Shown here in pieces: positions 5,317 to 21,808 of a stretch of 21,808 bases of DNA (positions are counted from its first letter, which is position 1; every line of letters begins with the position of its first letter). Position numbers and translations under genes: made by a program. This stretch comes from a virus. Lineage: Duplodnaviria; Heunggongvirae; Uroviricota; Caudoviricetes. The stretch lies in IMG/VR virus record IMGVR_UViG_2690316278_000015, one strand, 5' to 3'. Under the pieces are notes generated by a model. That model was not told where the DNA came from. It made no database searches and saw only the letters and a list, made by a program, of their open reading frames with translations.

Positions 5317-5640
5317 ATGAGAGTATTTAAAGATACGCAGTGTGATGCGTTTCTAAATGCTTTCGGTCAGTCTATCCAAACTTGTACGGGAAGTACTTTT
5401 ACAGGAATAGTAGAAGTACTTCCCGTTTCTATTGAGGCGGCAGGTGGATTTATCGAAAGCGTGGAAACATACCTAACAATCAGAAAGGACGATCTAATAA
5501 CCGCAAACGTGGCAATTGGTACAGTACTAATCATTGATGGTGTAAACCAGACAATCTATAACATTGAAGATGATCTATCAGGTATGGTTAATTGCTATTT
5601 CCGTACTTCTGCTGGTGCTTCATTTGCAGAGGACTACTAA
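5317..5640 (+). CDS. Putative head-tail joining / head completion protein
   Basis: 107-aa ORF directly after the capsid gene with AAGGA SD; position matches HK97 gp6-like connector genes. Assignment is positional. Confidence 0.45.
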   Translation: MRVFKDTQCDAFLNAFGQSIQTCTGSTFTGIVEVLPVSIEAAGGFIESVETYLTIRKDDLITANVAIGTVLIIDGVNQTIYNIEDDLSGMVNCYFRTSAGASFAEDY

Positions 5641-5641
5641 T

Positions 5642-5798
5642 ATGATGTTAGTACAAAAAGTACGGAATACGATGAAGCAGCTTATCAATGCTACTAAGAA
5701 TCTGACAGTATCACGTGATGTTGATGTATTTGAACAAATTGCTTTTGATTACTCATTAACGAGTTTAAGTTTCAGCAATGAACGCCGGGCAGGTAACT
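5642..5798 (+). CDS. Hypothetical protein, 3' end lost in N run (likely head-tail connector module)
   Basis: ATG at 5642 one base after the upstream stop (TAAtATG); open frame MMLVQKVRNTMKQ... runs into the N run at 5799. The ORF-track start at 5564 would overlap the upstream gene and is less likely. Confidence 0.4.
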
Positions 5799-6271
5799 NN
5801 NNNNNNNNNNNNNNNNNNNNNNNNNNNNNNNNNNNNNNNNNNNNNNNNNNNNNNNNNNNNNNNNNNNNNNNNNNNNNNNNNNNNNNNNNNNNNNNNNNNN
5901 NNNNNNNNNNNNNNNNNNNNNNNNNNNNNNNNNNNNNNNNNNNNNNNNNNNNNNNNNNNNNNNNNNNNNNNNNNNNNNNNNNNNNNNNNNNNNNNNNNNN
6001 NNNNNNNNNNNNNNNNNNNNNNNNNNNNNNNNNNNNNNNNNNNNNNNNNNNNNNNNNNNNNNNNNNNNNNNNNNNNNNNNNNNNNNNNNNNNNNNNNNNN
6101 NNNNNNNNNNNNNNNNNNNNNNNNNNNNNNNNNNNNNNNNNNNNNNNNNNNNNNNNNNNNNNNNNNNNNNNNNNNNNNNNNNNNNNNNNNNNNNNNNNNN
6201 NNNNNNNNNNNNNNNNNNNNNNNNNNNNNNNNNNNNNNNNNNNNNNNNNNNNNNNNNNNNNNNNNNNNNNN
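5799..6271. other. Masked/unknown sequence (N run, 473 nt)
   Basis: Continuous n characters; content cannot be assessed. Confidence 0.99.
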
Positions 6272-6329
6272 TTCAGAAGCAAATAATTTTGAAACGTATG
6301 ATAGTGATTACAGGACAGTACTACTATCT

Positions 6330-6849
6330 NNNNNNNNNNNNNNNNNNNNNNNNNNNNNNNNNNNNNNNNNNNNNNNNNNNNNNNNNNNNNNNNNNNNNNN
6401 NNNNNNNNNNNNNNNNNNNNNNNNNNNNNNNNNNNNNNNNNNNNNNNNNNNNNNNNNNNNNNNNNNNNNNNNNNNNNNNNNNNNNNNNNNNNNNNNNNNN
6501 NNNNNNNNNNNNNNNNNNNNNNNNNNNNNNNNNNNNNNNNNNNNNNNNNNNNNNNNNNNNNNNNNNNNNNNNNNNNNNNNNNNNNNNNNNNNNNNNNNNN
6601 NNNTCNNNNNNNNNNNNNNNNNNNNNNNNNNNNNNNNNNNNNNNNNNNNNNNNNNNNNNNNNNNNNNNNNNNNNNNNNNNNNNNNNNNNNNNNNNNNNNN
6701 NNNNNNNNNNNNNNNNNNNNNNNNNNNNNNNNNNNNNNNNNNNNNNNNNNNNNNNNNNNNNNNNNNNNNNNNNNNNNNNNNNNNNNNNNNNNNNNNNNNN
6801 NNNNNNNNNNNNNNNNNNNNNNNNNNNNNNNNNNNNNNNNNNNNNNNNN
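6330..6849. other. Masked/unknown sequence (N run, 520 nt, with two called bases 'tc' at 6604-6605)
   Basis: Continuous n characters. The 58-nt unmasked island 6272-6329 is open in one + frame (SEANNFETYDSDYRTVLLS), so coding likely continues across it. Confidence 0.99.
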
Positions 6850-8859
6850 ATGACAAAGACGGGTACTCTAAGTATCTATGCAAAGAACGCTACAACCGCC
6901 TGGACACGCATATATACCGCTACACAGATGGACGGGCGATACGTACCCCTTACACGTACCATCAACGGCCATGCACTCACGGCCAATTTAGTACTGAACA
7001 GTGAAGATACAGGTTCAGTACCTGATACACGTACTGTGAATGGTAAGCCTCTAAGTGAGGATGTAGTACTTACCAGTACTGATACCGGCTCTGTACCAGA
7101 TACACGGACAGTTAATGGTCATGTACTCAGTGAAGATATAGTACTGAGTAGTGAAGATACAGGTTCAGTACCTGACACGCGTACAGTGAACGGTCATGTA
7201 CTTAGTGAAAATGTAGTACTGAGTAGTGAAGATACAGGTTCAGTACCTGATACACGTATGGTCAACGGTCATGTACTCAGTGAGGATGTAGTACTTACCA
7301 GTACTGATGTTGGCTTAGGGAAGGTTACAGATGATGCCCAGCTTACGATAGCAGGTAATCTAAGTGATCTGGGGGACGTGGAAGAAGCACGTATTAACCT
7401 TGCTGTTTACTCAATGGATGAAGTAGATGCAGAGGTAACGGCTTTAGCTGACAGTATTACTTCCCTTGATTCCGCTTCCATGAAGAAAGCGAGTAACCTT
7501 TCTGATCTATCCAGTCTCTCTACAGCACGTACTAACCTACAGGTGAACCGTTTGACTCAGGGTGCTACGTACACCGATCTGATGAGTAATGACCTGACTA
7601 ACCGTATCCGAATTCAGGATAACGGGGCATGGGGTGCAAGTACTGGTACTGGATGGATTGCTTTAGGTATAGGTCAGGGGGGGACAGGGGCTACAGATGC
7701 TTTGAGTGCTCGCCTAAACTTTCAGGTGGATCGCTTTAATCAAGGTAGTAATTTAACAACTATTAAATCCGCTGATTCTTCCGCTGCATTAGTGGTTTAT
7801 GATGGAGGGCAATGGGGTTCAGCTACATATATTGCGGGTGCTTTCACTGGCTGGAAAGCATTAGCAATTCCGCAGGGCGGTACTGGTGTTAAGACTCAGG
7901 CTGAGTTATGGCCTGCGATTCGTCCTACGGGTGCAACTTCTTTAGCAGGAGATCCTGTCTCTGATTCTGACGCGACTACCAAACGCTGGGTTGAAAACTT
8001 GCTGAGTAGTCGTACTTCAGTTAGTCCTCAATGGGATGTTATTGCTTCTTCCCCTTCCTCTACGGCAATTGGTAGTTATGTAACTGGAGGGCGTATTCGT
8101 TCGATATGCAACATTGGTACATCAACTGAAATATCTGGTGGTTTTCGGGTTGGTAAAACGATGGGACAGACTGGACAGGCTGATCTCACCCTTTTTATTT
8201 CTGAAAATGGTGCAGAGGATAAACTATGGGGGCTAAAAGGGCCGACTGGAACGATCCTAACTGATGTTCAATCAGGATGGATGACTAATACCGCTGTTTC
8301 GGGACCGACAGATGCCAATACCATCACCTTTAACGGTATGTATGCAGGGCCAGGTGACTCAGGTATTAACTATAGTGAAAAATATTCCCCTTTATTGCAC
8401 ATGCAAAGATACCCAGGGGCAAATCGCTCTCAGCTTCAGATAGACGGTGGTGGTACTTTAAGAGTACGAGGCGGGAACGGTACAACATGGTTTGGATGGT
8501 TAGTAATGCAAGCTCAAGGTACATCAGGTCGTGAGTTTAAAAGAGACATAACTCCAGCAAATCCAGTTGAAGCATTAGATCGGATAATGTCACAAGATTT
8601 AGTAACGTTTATCTACAAGGATGATGAACAAGAAAGGGTTAGGTTTGGTGTTATCGCCGAAGATGCTGAGTTGACTGCTCCGCAGTACATTAAGCATGAT
8701 GAAGAAACAGTTGAAATAGAAGGGGAGATTGTCACTCGTGATCATCCACGTGTTGATTTAAATCCAATAGTGATGGACTTGATGGGAGCTATTCAAGCCC
8801 AACAAGAAGAAATTAATCAGCTAAAAGATTTAGTACAACAGCTATTAAATAATAAATAA
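6850..8859 (+). CDS. Tail-fibre-like protein with Stf-type repeats and C-terminal intramolecular chaperone (peptidase S74-like); candidate neck/collar whisker
   Basis: First ATG after the N run is 6850, but the frame is open back into the gap, so the true start may be upstream. Five tandem 25-aa repeats (TRTVNGHVLSEDVVLSSEDTGSVPD). C-terminal ~110 aa matches the endosialidase/T5-pb1 chaperone pattern (S-G-R-E-F-K-R-D-I...ALDRI...RFGVIAED) with terminal coiled coil. Confidence 0.8.
   Translation: MTKTGTLSIYAKNATTAWTRIYTATQMDGRYVPLTRTINGHALTANLVLNSEDTGSVPDTRTVNGKPLSEDVVLTSTDTGSVPDTRTVNGHVLSEDIVLSSEDTGSVPDTRTVNGHVLSENVVLSSEDTGSVPDTRMVNGHVLSEDVVLTSTDVGLGKVTDDAQLTIAGNLSDLGDVEEARINLAVYSMDEVDAEVTALADSITSLDSASMKKASNLSDLSSLSTARTNLQVNRLTQGATYTDLMSNDLTNRIRIQDNGAWGASTGTGWIALGIGQGGTGATDALSARLNFQVDRFNQGSNLTTIKSADSSAALVVYDGGQWGSATYIAGAFTGWKALAIPQGGTGVKTQAELWPAIRPTGATSLAGDPVSDSDATTKRWVENLLSSRTSVSPQWDVIASSPSSTAIGSYVTGGRIRSICNIGTSTEISGGFRVGKTMGQTGQADLTLFISENGAEDKLWGLKGPTGTILTDVQSGWMTNTAVSGPTDANTITFNGMYAGPGDSGINYSEKYSPLLHMQRYPGANRSQLQIDGGGTLRVRGGNGTTWFGWLVMQAQGTSGREFKRDITPANPVEALDRIMSQDLVTFIYKDDEQERVRFGVIAEDAELTAPQYIKHDEETVEIEGEIVTRDHPRVDLNPIVMDLMGAIQAQQEEINQLKDLVQQLLNNK
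6952..7326 (+). repeat. Five tandem in-frame 75-nt coding repeats (phage tail fibre repeat)
   Basis: Units at 6952, 7027, 7102, 7177, 7252; near-identical at nucleotide level, each encoding TRT[VI]NG[HK]xLS[EA][DN]xVL[TS]S[TE]DTGSVPD. Confidence 0.9.
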
Positions 8860-19310: not shown

Positions 19311-19583
19311 ATGGATATCGGTGCTATTTTAGCTCTTGTTATTTCTGGATGCGTATTCCTTTATACTATCTTTAGAGATAATACAAAGGATACGAATGAT
19401 CTATTAACTCGCGTTGCTACTCTTGAAACTACCATTGCTGTACTGGAAAGTAGTATTTCCCGTATTGAGGATGATCAGGATAAGATGAGAGATACACTAA
19501 GTAAACTGGAAACACAAATCCATGAACTTGATGTTAAGATTGAAAGGATTATTGCAATTCTTCAGCAGAAACAACGACCATAA
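19311..19583 (+). CDS. Small membrane protein with one N-terminal TM helix and a C-terminal coiled coil (holin-like or i-spanin-like; function uncertain)
   Basis: 90-aa ORF; hydrophobic residues 3-20 (IGAILALVISGCVFLYTIF), then charged heptad-like region. Good SD. Convergent with the endolysin gene. Confidence 0.5.
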   Translation: MDIGAILALVISGCVFLYTIFRDNTKDTNDLLTRVATLETTIAVLESSISRIEDDQDKMRDTLSKLETQIHELDVKIERIIAILQQKQRP

Positions 19584-19633
19584 AAAAAGGCATAGTATGT
19601 CATTCGTACTATGCCTTTTCTTTATTTGTTTTT
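19582..19633. terminator. Bidirectional rho-independent terminator between convergent genes
   Basis: A7 tract (19582-19588), stem GGCATAGTA (19589-19597) / TACTATGCC (19607-19615) with 9-nt loop, then T-rich tract TTTTCTTTATTTGTTTTT. Reads as hairpin plus U-tract on either strand. Confidence 0.7.
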
Positions 19634-20071: not shown

Positions 20072-20081
20072 TTACTAAATA

Positions 20082-20100
20082 CCTATAATGAATTTATAGG
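20082..20100. promoter_or_regulatory. Perfect 7-bp inverted repeat CCTATAA-N5-TTATAGG in the divergent region between endolysin and downstream + operon (candidate operator or mRNA hairpin); contains a TATAAT hexamer
   Basis: Arms 20082-20088 and 20094-20100 are exact reverse complements. TATAAT at 20084-20089. Right arm overlaps the AGGA SD of the gene starting at 20108. Confidence 0.5.
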
Positions 20101-20107
20101 AATATTT

Positions 20108-20542
20108 ATGATGAGTGAATGGAAATACTCGGATGATTGGAGCGAGGAGGAAATGTTATCCGGTGAATATGCTGGTTTCGTTTATATCTTTCAGTTTGAG
20201 GATGGTTCTAATTATGTCGGTGCTAAGCAAATCTATCAGCGGGTTAAGGATGCGAGAAAGCTAAAGCCCACTTCAAAGGAAAATGGCTGGCGTGAGTACC
20301 TCAGTAGTTCCAATGTCGTTAAAAACAAAATTGAAAATGGTGAACAGTACTCAAAAACGATTCTATGGTGCTTCGCAACTATGCGAGAGGTAATGATTGT
20401 AGAGGCAATACTGATCCTTCATCAGATGCTTAAACCGGAATGTTTGAATCTGGCAATGATGAGTAAGATTAGATCACCAAATGCAAAGGATAAAAAAAGA
20501 CTACTCGGAATAGTACAGGAACTATTGGAGTACTTGAATTGA
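20108..20542 (+). CDS. Small GIY-YIG-like nuclease domain protein (putative; possible homing-endonuclease relative lacking a DNA-binding extension)
   Basis: 144-aa ORF. GFVYIFQFEDGSNYVGAK fits G-I-Y-x(9-11)-Y-I-G spacing (cf. I-TevI GIYQIKNTLNNKVYVGSAK); Arg 7 residues after YVG; later Glu (MREVMIVEAIL) and Asn (ECLNLA) in positions expected for the catalytic Glu/Asn. The usual His after the Arg is not evident. Confidence 0.45.
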   Translation: MMSEWKYSDDWSEEEMLSGEYAGFVYIFQFEDGSNYVGAKQIYQRVKDARKLKPTSKENGWREYLSSSNVVKNKIENGEQYSKTILWCFATMREVMIVEAILILHQMLKPECLNLAMMSKIRSPNAKDKKRLLGIVQELLEYLN

Positions 20543-20551
20543 GGTAAATAT

Positions 20552-21210
20552 ATGGCAAGTGGAATAAATGGNNNNNNNNNNNNNNNNNNNNNNNNNNNNN
20601 NNNNNNNNNNNNNNNNNNNNNNATACAAACGCAGGGAGTTAGATTAAATAATCAATTCCAGAATGAAATAATTAAACGTTCCAAGCTACTATCCCAAAGA
20701 ATGCAGGGTGATTTGAATAATAGCGTTGACCGTGGGGCNNNNNNNNNNNNNNNNNNNNNNNNNNNNNNNNNNNNNNNNNNNNNNNNNNNNNNNNNNNNNN
20801 NNNNNNNNNNNNNNNNNNNNNNNNNNNNNNNNNNNNNNNNNNNNNNNNNNNNNNNNNNNNNNNNNNNNNNNNNNNNNNNNNNNNNNNNNNNNNNNNNNNN
20901 NNNNNNNNNNNNNNNNNNNNNNNNNNNNNNNNNNNNNNNNNNNNNNNNNNNNNNNNNNNNNNNNNNNNNNNNNNNNNNNNNNNNNNNNNNNNNNNNNNNN
21001 NNNNNNNNNNNNNNNNNNNNNNNNNNNNNNNNNNNNNNNNNNNNNNNNNNNNNNNNNNNNNNNNNNNNNNNNNNNNNNNNNNNNNNNNNNNNNNNNNNNN
21101 NNNNNNNNNNNNNNNNNNNNNNNNNNNNNNNNNNNNNNNNNNNNNNNNATGATGGTGTAAGGGTAATTATGAGCGGTATTCAGGGAACATTCAGGATAAG
21201 TAGACAATGA
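20552..21210 (+). CDS. Hypothetical protein, interrupted by two N runs (extent and frame continuity unverifiable)
   Basis: ATG 20552 with GAGGT SD (MASGING...) runs into N run 20572-20622; open frame resumes (IQTQGVRLNNQFQNEIIKRSKLLSQRMQGDLNNSVDRG) into N run 20739-21148; an open frame exits that gap and stops at 21210, overlapping the next ATG (ATGA). Could be more than one gene. Confidence 0.3.
20572..20622. other. N run (51 nt)
   Basis: Continuous n characters. Confidence 0.99.
20739..21148. other. Masked/unknown sequence (N run, 410 nt)
   Basis: Continuous n characters. Confidence 0.99.
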
Positions 21211-21518
21211 ATTTTGAGCAACATTATGGTGATTTAATAAGCAAGATTAAGCTAAATGGCATGACACCAGATGGTAATAGTATGCCAATTAACAAATGTT
21301 TTCTTGATAAGAAATTTCAAAAGGTCGTTAAGAAAAGTAATTATCAGATTGATAGCTATATGAACGTTATTTATGAGAAGAAGAAAGATTTCAAAGTTGG
21401 TGAAGTACTTGAATGGGAATTACAGGGTGAAAAGATGCCTGTATTTCTAATTGAGAGTAAAAAGCTCTTTGTGAAGGGTAAACATTTTTGGGTATATGCC
21501 GTGGGGATTATTGAATGA
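21207..21518 (+). CDS. Hypothetical protein (Lys-rich, 103 aa)
   Basis: ORF translationally coupled on both sides (ATGA overlaps at 21207 and 21515). A+T-rich. No motif recognised. Confidence 0.5.
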   Translation: MNFEQHYGDLISKIKLNGMTPDGNSMPINKCFLDKKFQKVVKKSNYQIDSYMNVIYEKKKDFKVGEVLEWELQGEKMPVFLIESKKLFVKGKHFWVYAVGIIE

Positions 21519-21808
21519 TTAGTATATTGATTGAGTTTCTGAAGTCAGGATTGGATTTTTTCATTAAGAAGAAAACTATTGAACAGGAAGTAAAGAAAAC
21601 GAATGTAGAAGGGCAGATTGAAACGAATAAAGAAGAGATTGAAAAGGTAACATTCCACTGGCGTAATGCCCTCGGTTTTGTACTAACCCTTATCATTCTC
21701 TATAACTGGATCATAGTACCAGTACTTGATGCTTTTGGAATTATTGTGATCCAAGTTCCATTAGGACAACTTTTGCAAGTGCTATTGATTATGGTTGGTG
21801 GAAGCTGA
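21515..21808 (+). CDS. Putative holin-like membrane protein, 3'-partial (runs off the window end)
   Basis: Open frame of 97+ aa: charged, coiled-coil-prone N-terminal 40 aa, then at least two hydrophobic segments (ALGFVLTLIILYNWIIVPVL; GIIVIQVPLGQLLQVLLIMVGG). No stop before window end. Confidence 0.5.
   Translation: MISILIEFLKSGLDFFIKKKTIEQEVKKTNVEGQIETNKEEIEKVTFHWRNALGFVLTLIILYNWIIVPVLDAFGIIVIQVPLGQLLQVLLIMVGGS

Follow-up and report, generated by a model that had tools for sequence, protein, structure and literature searches.

We analysed a stretch of 21,808 nucleotides (nt) from a virus of the Caudoviricetes (IMG/VR record IMGVR_UViG_2690316278_000015), hereafter called the window, which is the late half of a siphovirus prophage. 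The gene under study, at 20108-20542, encodes a minimal GIY-YIG protein of 144 amino acids (aa) that belongs to the SegE family. Seg-type GIY-YIG enzymes are textbook selfish genes. What is new here is the evidence that the short SegE-type form is a fixed, selected core gene, which alternates with a junction resolvase. Judging from sequence, the protein is probably a working DNA-processing nuclease rather than the product of a decaying selfish homing gene. Concerning its role, we tentatively favour a domesticated nuclease that acts late on DNA branches or other DNA structures and that would have displaced endonuclease VII (Endo VII) in situ; we consider this quite possible, if still somewhat short of probable.

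A stand-alone SegE-type GIY-YIG protein

The open reading frame (ORF) is real. It lies on the + strand, starts with ATG and has exactly the limits given in a preliminary description made from the sequence alone, which had proposed a GIY-YIG-like protein. In Pfam, the 144-aa protein matched PF19835 SegE_GIY-YIG (E=2.1e-16; 60.7 bits for a cutoff of 25), residues 5-104 being aligned with profile positions 1-102 of 123. The generic profile PF01541, which had been named as the means of checking the assignment, gave no match even at E<=10, and the significant match came from PF19835 instead. Two PHROGs families were matched with about equal strength: phrog_447 (E=2.5e-14), a 148-position family of short proteins labelled 'NAD synthetase', and phrog_7363 'homing endonuclease' (356 positions, E=9e-14). 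For short SegE-type GIY-YIG proteins the label 'NAD synthetase' is an apparent annotation error that was propagated into the family name. An E. coli orthologue carries the RefSeq label 'GIY-YIG nuclease family protein'; indeed, the domain assignment is routine and already in automated annotation.

The motifs can be read directly. The equivalent of GIY is F24-V25-Y26 and that of YIG is Y36-V37-G38, with a spacer of nine residues (IFQFEDGSN) between them. R45 stands 9 residues past Y36. E99 and N114 are 15 residues apart, as are the residues that we take to be E75 and N90 of I-TevI. This arrangement is far above chance expectation. Of the Arg, Glu and Asn at I-TevI-like spacings in the preliminary description, all three are thus present and the Glu and the Asn are invariant, but the Arg is not conserved in the family. 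The GIY-YIG superfamily has been defined by GIY, YIG, a central Arg, a C-terminal Glu and, in the homing endonuclease/UvrC lineage, an additional Asn (PMC1564403). The 144-aa protein agrees with this definition in all sequence elements but the Arg.

The acidic N-terminus and the missing DNA-binding extension had been correctly noted. About 30 residues remain C-terminal of N114, and a Pfam scan of the protein found no NUMOD, helix-turn-helix (HTH), zinc-finger or any further domain. The His-Me finger core (HLDHDH ... N ... E) of PF02945 had no Pfam match in the protein either, and the fold is different. Searches of the PDB sequences with phmmer and with family profiles returned nothing meaningful. 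With hhalign, the family profile and what we take to be the sequence of the I-TevI catalytic domain aligned at only E=0.01 with a probability of 4%, the GIY/YIG and 'SS' motifs being superposed.

Conserved residues and structure model

Conservation was examined in relatives of increasing distance. Among 64 distinct orthologues, Y26, Y36, G38, K40, W61, Y64, S68, E99 and N114 are invariant. The short length is also kept (141-149 aa). In 94 short relatives (22-69% identity), Y26, Y36, G38, Y64, S67, E99 and N114 are invariant. The same positions are kept in the long NUMOD-bearing relatives; Y26 does not vary in 30 long distant relatives, nor does E99 wherever it is aligned. R45, however, is replaced in 8 of the 64 orthologues (by G in 6, by K in 1 and by H in 1), and across the wider family the equivalent position is K, R or G. 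Because K40 is invariant and position 47 is basic (K or R) in all the sequences, either of the two may stand in for the canonical Arg.

A confident AlphaFold2 model of the 144-aa protein (predicted local distance difference test, 84; predicted template modelling score, 0.80) contains the expected pair of strands, at 23-30 and 35-41, together with another strand at 81-89 and a Glu-bearing helix at 92-105. It has in addition an N-terminal strand and an amphipathic C-terminal helix (126-143); beyond N114, the model is made of a low-confidence loop and this single helix. Residues ~41-68, where I-TevI has its Arg-bearing helix, are modelled as mostly non-helical. When the model was compared with the PDB using Foldseek, no match was obtained at E<=0.001. 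Overall, the protein is probably a nuclease, and residue conservation argues for this more strongly than the model does.

Fixed position and selection

The same block of genes was found in every locus examined: a transmembrane (TM)/coiled-coil protein, lysozyme, the GIY-YIG protein, and proteins of 192, 103 and 97 aa. The loci comprised four distinct places with the identical protein, orthologues down to 41% identity, five loci from a genome collection and 57 viral contigs. The GIY-YIG gene occurs in ~75 prophage loci at different chromosomal integration sites, in more than 10 enterobacterial genera including Shigella/E. coli, Enterobacter, Rahnella, Scandinavium, Pluralibacter, Buttiauxella, Pseudescherichia, Phytobacter and Klebsiella. 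No empty slot was found among the ~75 loci that reach it. To the right of the conserved block lies variable cargo or the junction with the host; the Shigella sonnei 53G prophage ends beside mipA.

For the single pair of genes that was not saturated, a ratio of non-synonymous to synonymous substitution rates (dN/dS) of ~0.06 was obtained, corresponding to 17 synonymous versus 5 non-synonymous changes. The remaining pairs have a dN of 0.2-0.7, with their synonymous sites saturated or nearly so. The mean pairwise identity of the GIY-YIG protein is 0.60, the same as that of the endolysin. Pairwise distances correlate between the GIY-YIG protein and its neighbours with r=0.63-0.68, and among the neighbours themselves with r=0.68. 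The GIY-YIG gene is therefore under purifying selection and co-diverges with its neighbours. Since empty sites are lacking as well, the pattern is unlike that of a sporadic or decaying homing gene. A 'degenerate homing endonuclease', one of two possibilities raised in the preliminary description, does not agree with the low dN/dS, with the invariant catalytic-type residues of the 64 orthologues, with the narrow length range, or with the presence of the gene in every related prophage examined.

Endonuclease VII in the same slot of sister clades

The family of the 192-aa protein is broader than the GIY-YIG clade. In clades whose 192-aa homologue has 28-35% identity, the slot upstream of it is occupied by Endo VII (PF02945). 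These clades are prophages of Klebsiella, E. coli and Kluyvera, and a 'DCP80'-type phage. Their gene order is J-type tail tip, small protein, nuclease, small ORF (in most loci), 192-aa homologue and 103-aa homologue. The small protein before Endo VII holds the position of the TM/coiled-coil gene and, in the cases examined, is itself a TM/coiled-coil protein. One Endo VII clade has the T4 dimerisation domain PF09124 alongside PF02945. Over its full length, the sister-clade enzyme is 41% identical to an annotated 'recombination endonuclease VII' and 44% identical to what we take to be the sequence of T4 gp49. Two prophage homologues (loci L024 and L026) retain the catalytic motif HLDH(D/N)H, N, E, and presumably lack three of the four cysteines that bind zinc in T4 gp49, these having been lost. 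No junction-resolving enzyme was found among the annotated or Pfam-scanned genes of the ~33-kb E. coli copy of the GIY-YIG prophage. The gp49 enzyme of T4 is a resolvase bound to the portal, and it releases packaging that has stalled on branched DNA (PMC9958956).

The DCP80 locus (L014) covers positions 20126-27503 of GenBank PQ671644.1, 'Escherichia phage DCP80', a record classed as Straboviridae (T4-like, 141 kb). A T4-like context for this match was rejected, as the region is the same siphovirus-type module behind a J-like tail-tip gene. It encodes a J-like protein of 1252 aa, a TM/coiled-coil protein, Endo VII, two proteins of 183 and 99 aa, and lysozyme, in the order also seen in metagenomic contigs of 30 kb (L096). 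Either the record could be a chimera or the phage could have acquired a siphovirus-type module.

Relatives and distribution

A word-indexed search gave 24 clusters of 142-148-aa proteins, all PF19835, in Enterobacteriaceae. An exhaustive profile search extended the family to 403 clusters at 50% identity. Among the representatives of the best 150 of these 403 clusters, 88 are 120-160 aa long and 31 are 220 aa or longer. On these sequence lengths the short stand-alone PF19835 form is common, which corrects the earlier suggestion that short stand-alone forms are unusual. To our knowledge, none of these short proteins has been characterised. In cultured phages, the relatives found by tblastn are solely 358-359-aa proteins of T4-like phages, annotated as homing endonucleases; the gene of the RB16 homologue sits between nrdC and nrdD. 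NUMOD1/NUMOD3 and I-TevI DNA-binding domains occur in long members of the family. One short PF19835 gene, in an unrelated phage, lies directly 3' of the gene for a YqaJ recombination exonuclease and 5' of replication genes.

A public collection has the exact 144-aa sequence in 686 indexed blocks, including Shigella sonnei 53G. On the practical side, hundreds of Shigella sonnei assemblies contain the protein. With Megablast, the region had no match among 50,697 phage records and none in 5,426 complete E. coli genomes; the more distant E. coli copy was recovered only with a query from another locus (L020). A scan with P0036 as query found nothing.

Two metagenomic proteins of 300-305 aa, P0028 and P0030, are close relatives (E 1e-46 to 1e-49 to the family profile). 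Each has an N-terminal Cys-rich region of ~160 aa, which in P0030 weakly matches DUF723, followed by the GIY-YIG domain at the C-terminus. This domain order is opposite to that of the Seg and I-TevI enzymes.

The conserved gene block and the rest of the window

The gene order of the window begins with a lambda gpA-type large terminase gene, followed by genes for the portal, a protease/major-capsid fusion, the tail tube, the tape measure and the distal tail protein. Next come the genes of a DUF6950 protein, a J-type tail tip, a 98-aa protein, a DUF8377 protein and the TM/coiled-coil protein, then the lysozyme gene on the minus strand and the GIY-YIG gene. Features of the right end are collected in Table 1. 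Runs of N at 20573-20622, at 20740-21148 and at roughly 5600-7000 of the window do not have true lengths. The two runs 3' of the GIY-YIG gene stand for 22 and ~358 real bases within the 192-aa gene; ORFs listed there, such as 20552-20647 and 20701-21210, are therefore artefacts. In unmasked copies, the 192-aa gene starts 10 nt past the GIY-YIG stop and is followed by the overlapping 103-aa and holin-like 97-aa genes.

Table 1. Features around the GIY-YIG gene at the right end of the window
Feature	Position	Strand	Remarks
90-aa protein	19311..19583	+	N-terminal TM segment and coiled coil; DUF2730-like, XhlA-like
Terminator-like hairpin	19585..19619	.	15-bp stem, A-run and T-run flanks, bidirectional; pattern match
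T4-type lysozyme PF00959, 149 aa	19622..20071	-	divergent from the GIY-YIG gene, 36 nt upstream
Palindromic divergent intergenic region, AAATACCTATA ... TATAGGAATATTT	20072..20107	.	36 nt between the two start codons
SegE-type stand-alone GIY-YIG protein	20108..20542	+	conserved Y26, Y36, G38, K40, K47, W61, Y64, S67/S68, E99, N114; helix 126-143
192-aa family gene	20552..21210	+	partly N-masked, length in the window not true; candidate partner
103-aa protein	21207..21518	+	start overlaps the 192-aa stop; conserved block
97-aa holin-like membrane protein	21515..21808	+	PF11351 GTA_holin_3TM, 25.0 bits for a cutoff of 24.8; last gene of the block

The position beside a lysis gene, already remarked upon in the preliminary description, is confirmed by the divergent lysozyme gene. 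In five lineages this gene is instead encoded on the + strand, with 0-4 nt between it and the GIY-YIG gene downstream. The palindrome between the two divergent genes contains their mirrored ribosome-binding sites. Its arms co-vary across more than 15 lineages, and loci with a + strand lysozyme gene lack it. From its sequence, it could serve a dimeric regulator as operator, or form a hairpin that sequesters the Shine-Dalgarno (SD) sequences.

The TM/coiled-coil gene is the first of the block, which forms the end of the prophage, and lies upstream of the lysozyme gene in nearly all loci. The hairpin lies between it and the 3' end of the lysozyme gene. This suggests that the GIY-YIG, 192-aa, 103-aa and 97-aa genes may form a separate transcription unit, whose promoter would then be inside the lysozyme gene.

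The 192-aa gene always follows the GIY-YIG gene, at a spacing of -13 to +15 nt. The GIY-YIG stop and the 192-aa start are either 3-15 nt apart with a conserved TGAGGTAAATATATG, or overlapping (ATGA); at this junction a shared stop/SD or an ATGA overlap is frequent. Such close spacing or overlap suggests that the two genes are translationally coupled. An AlphaFold2 model of the 192-aa protein resembles a neck protein of the HK97 gp10 family. Neither Pfam nor PHROGs returned a convincing match for the 192-aa and 103-aa proteins, and the profile search of the 192-aa family against the PDB was empty. A split gene having its DNA-binding half downstream was considered and rejected, as neither a NUMOD nor an HTH was matched in the 192-aa protein, whose model is neck-like. 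PADLOC assigned the GIY-YIG, 192-aa, 103-aa and 97-aa proteins to no defence system, the sole match of the GIY-YIG protein being to the homing-endonuclease model.

In Shigella sonnei (L001, 7682-9717), just past the right end of the window, three cargo genes follow the 97-aa gene. They encode a 264-aa HNH protein, whose N-terminus matches PDC-M68A and HNH effectors of the type found in CBASS (cyclic oligonucleotide-based antiphage signalling systems), with E=4e-23 to 2e-21, a 151-aa membrane protein on the opposite strand, and an N6-adenine-type DNA methyltransferase (phrog_3820, E=3e-103). In other lineages this position is taken by a KAP NTPase or a dynamin-like GTPase. Because the defence-like cargo differs between lineages, the position looks like a defence or moron hot spot.

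A whole element of ~33 kb is seen in E. coli NZ_CM151386.1 (L029/L030, 1811416-1844641), where it interrupts yegD and is bounded on one side by a serine recombinase. It includes ~10 kb of early genes without any replication, repressor or recombination function that Pfam recognises. The tail module of the element has hallmarks resembling those of the Rhodobacter capsulatus gene transfer agent (RcGTA), namely DUF6950, Phage_Tail_Tip and GTA_holin_3TM. The element may be complete as a temperate phage, or it may be defective or GTA-like.

Possible roles of the GIY-YIG protein

In the reading that we favour, the short SegE-type protein has lost, or never possessed, the sequence-reading NUMOD/HTH domain of Seg-type homing endonucleases. 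Its gene is a fixed core gene of small enterobacterial siphovirus prophages that integrate by a serine recombinase (~33 kb in one complete example), and heads a four-gene unit (GIY-YIG, 192 aa, 103 aa and holin-like 97 aa) beside the lysozyme gene. On the most economical account, a non-orthologous displacement in situ, the bare catalytic domain would fill the late small-nuclease slot of Endo VII. The protein would cut by DNA structure, not by sequence, and branched intermediates of replication or recombination would be trimmed or resolved late in infection, permitting genome packaging. The argument for structure processing rather than sequence reading is the proposed displacement of Endo VII in situ, and it fits the missing DNA-binding domain. 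That the protein would work like Endo VII is suggested by the position of its gene, in the slot that Endo VII has in the same module of sister phages. We would guess that the enzyme oligomerises through the C-terminal helix and that the neck-like 192-aa protein recruits it; from gene linkage, the 192-aa protein is a plausible partner, and a nuclease that works with a partner, the other possibility raised in the preliminary description, is to that extent plausible. The fuller version, in which the minimal GIY-YIG domain replaced a T4-type Endo VII as the late junction-resolving or debranching enzyme together with the HK97 gp10-like neck protein from the next gene, seems to us conceivable but doubtful.

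Several observations weigh against this proposal. Characterised members of the SegE subfamily are site-specific homing enzymes and not junction resolvases. Canonical resolvases are dimeric, and dimerisation of the GIY-YIG protein is a guess based on its amphipathic helix. Its catalytic Arg, canonical in the superfamily, is unconserved, R45 being G in six of the 64 orthologues. The GIY-YIG gene belongs to a lysis-type module, not to a DNA-metabolism module. The presence of two nuclease families in one intergenic slot is also typical of a homing-endonuclease hot spot, and a homing enzyme with an Endo VII motif exists, F-CphI (PMC6083498). Finally, among ~65 viral-contig loci, two have an inactivated copy with intact neighbours. 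In L087 (5960-6115), an internal deletion has removed residues ~17-111 and fused codon ~16 to codon ~112; in L080 (5998-6429), a nonsense codon stands at position 66. These copies indicate that the GIY-YIG gene is dispensable, at least for prophage maintenance.

The main rival, which we judge unlikely, is a free-standing Seg-like homing endonuclease that has been swept to fixation in the lineage. Such an enzyme would contact DNA through the catalytic domain and a basic C-terminal tail, would cut in or near the lysozyme or 192-aa gene of phages without the nuclease, and would be copied in by repair (intronless homing or marker exclusion). Membership of the SegE family points this way, as do the annotated homing endonucleases among the nearest cultured-phage relatives, the classic homing slot of the RB16 gene between nrdC and nrdD, the DNA-binding domains of long family members and the single PADLOC match. 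Fusion of the same domain to a Cys-rich region in P0028 and P0030 is in keeping with homing, the occupation of the slot by another nuclease family in sister clades is as at homing hot spots, and two decayed copies are what a homing cycle predicts. However, the 144-aa protein has no DNA-binding domain, the ~75 loci of more than 10 genera include no empty site, and the gene co-diverges with its neighbours as much as these do with each other. It is under strong purifying selection and is intact down to 41% identity. In addition, what takes the slot in sister clades is a gp49-type resolvase of full length, with the dimerisation domain in one clade, and not an HNH homing enzyme with a DNA-binding domain.

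A non-specific degradative or exclusion nuclease directed against host or rival-phage DNA, for the benefit of the phage or of the lysogen, seems distinctly improbable. The models for it would be T4 endonuclease II and PD-T4-3. T4 endonuclease II has 136 aa, and the size and single-domain architecture of the present protein are similar. The gene also adjoins variable prophage cargo with defence-like genes (the HNH effector-like protein, the KAP NTPase and the dynamin-like GTPase), but it belongs to the conserved core block and not to this cargo. No self-protection or modification gene is consistently linked to it, PADLOC found no defence system besides its homing-endonuclease model, and what replaces it in sister clades is a junction resolvase, not a defence gene. 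Least probable of all, and in our view very improbable, is a relic without activity, or a purely structural or regulatory protein, in which the fold is retained but DNA is no longer cut. The variable Arg, the lack of a PF01541 match and the mostly non-helical region ~41-68 of the model would agree with it. Against it, both Tyr, the Gly, the Glu, the Asn and K40 are invariant across hundreds of relatives, bona fide long homing-type members included, and position 47 is always basic. An HNH-like accessory of packaging beside the terminase was also rejected, since in the excised circle the gene would adjoin the recombinase, with the small terminase gene (TerS) ~10 kb further.

What can be said at this point is that the bare catalytic domain of a selfish-gene family is kept here as a core, selected gene and alternates in situ with a Holliday-junction resolvase. 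If our preferred reading is true, the catalytic domain of a homing endonuclease would have been domesticated into a core DNA-maturation function, and the system would be a prokaryotic-virus counterpart of the SLX1-plus-partner logic. If the protein is structure-selective, it would show the recruitment of a homing nuclease to a housekeeping role and would offer the first clue to what a large uncharacterised group does: ~60% of the nearest 150 clusters are short PF19835 proteins. Known phage junction-resolving enzymes are Endo VII, T7 endonuclease I, RusA, RuvC-like enzymes and Rap; as far as we know, a structure-selective protein of the present type would add a GIY-YIG enzyme to them.

Comparison with known systems

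T4 SegE and the other Seg-type homing endonucleases (PF19835; phrog_7363) have a catalytic domain of the same family as the 144-aa protein and share with it the signature GFVY-x9-YIGxK ... W(R/K)xYxSS ... E ... N. They are ~200-360 aa long, whereas the 144-aa protein is without their C-terminal NUMOD/HTH/zinc DNA-binding half, and its gene is fixed and co-diverging with its neighbours rather than sporadic. The catalytic domain of I-TevI (PDB 1LN0) is 16% identical in sequence. As compared to I-TevI, the 144-aa protein has an insert of ~20 residues with the W61/Y64/S67 motif and is without a linker, a zinc finger or an HTH; its model does not reproduce the Arg-bearing helix.

T4 endonuclease VII (gp49) is, like the GIY-YIG protein, small (~150 aa), and Endo VII is found in the same slot of sister phages. 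Their folds and active sites are unrelated (GIY-YIG versus His-Me finger); the GIY-YIG protein does not belong to the Endo VII family, and the likeness is one of position. PD-T4-3, an E. coli GIY-YIG restriction enzyme specific for 5-hydroxymethylcytosine (PDB 9U75), is a 248-aa defence enzyme with extra domains, and PADLOC did not match the 144-aa protein to it. T4 endonuclease II (DenA), whose role is described in PMC1564403, is likewise a short single-domain phage GIY-YIG nuclease without a separate DNA-binding domain. In SLX1-SLX4, a structure-selective nuclease of eukaryotes, a minimal GIY-YIG domain cleaves junctions and flaps in dependence on an obligatory non-catalytic partner (PMC9071465). 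The GIY-YIG gene and the always adjacent 192-aa gene may follow a similar logic, to judge from their linkage. The two nucleases nevertheless differ in lineage, SLX1 belonging to Slx1/URI and the 144-aa protein being homing endonuclease/UvrC-like with a C-terminal Asn (PMC1564403), and the 144-aa protein is without a RING/PHD domain.

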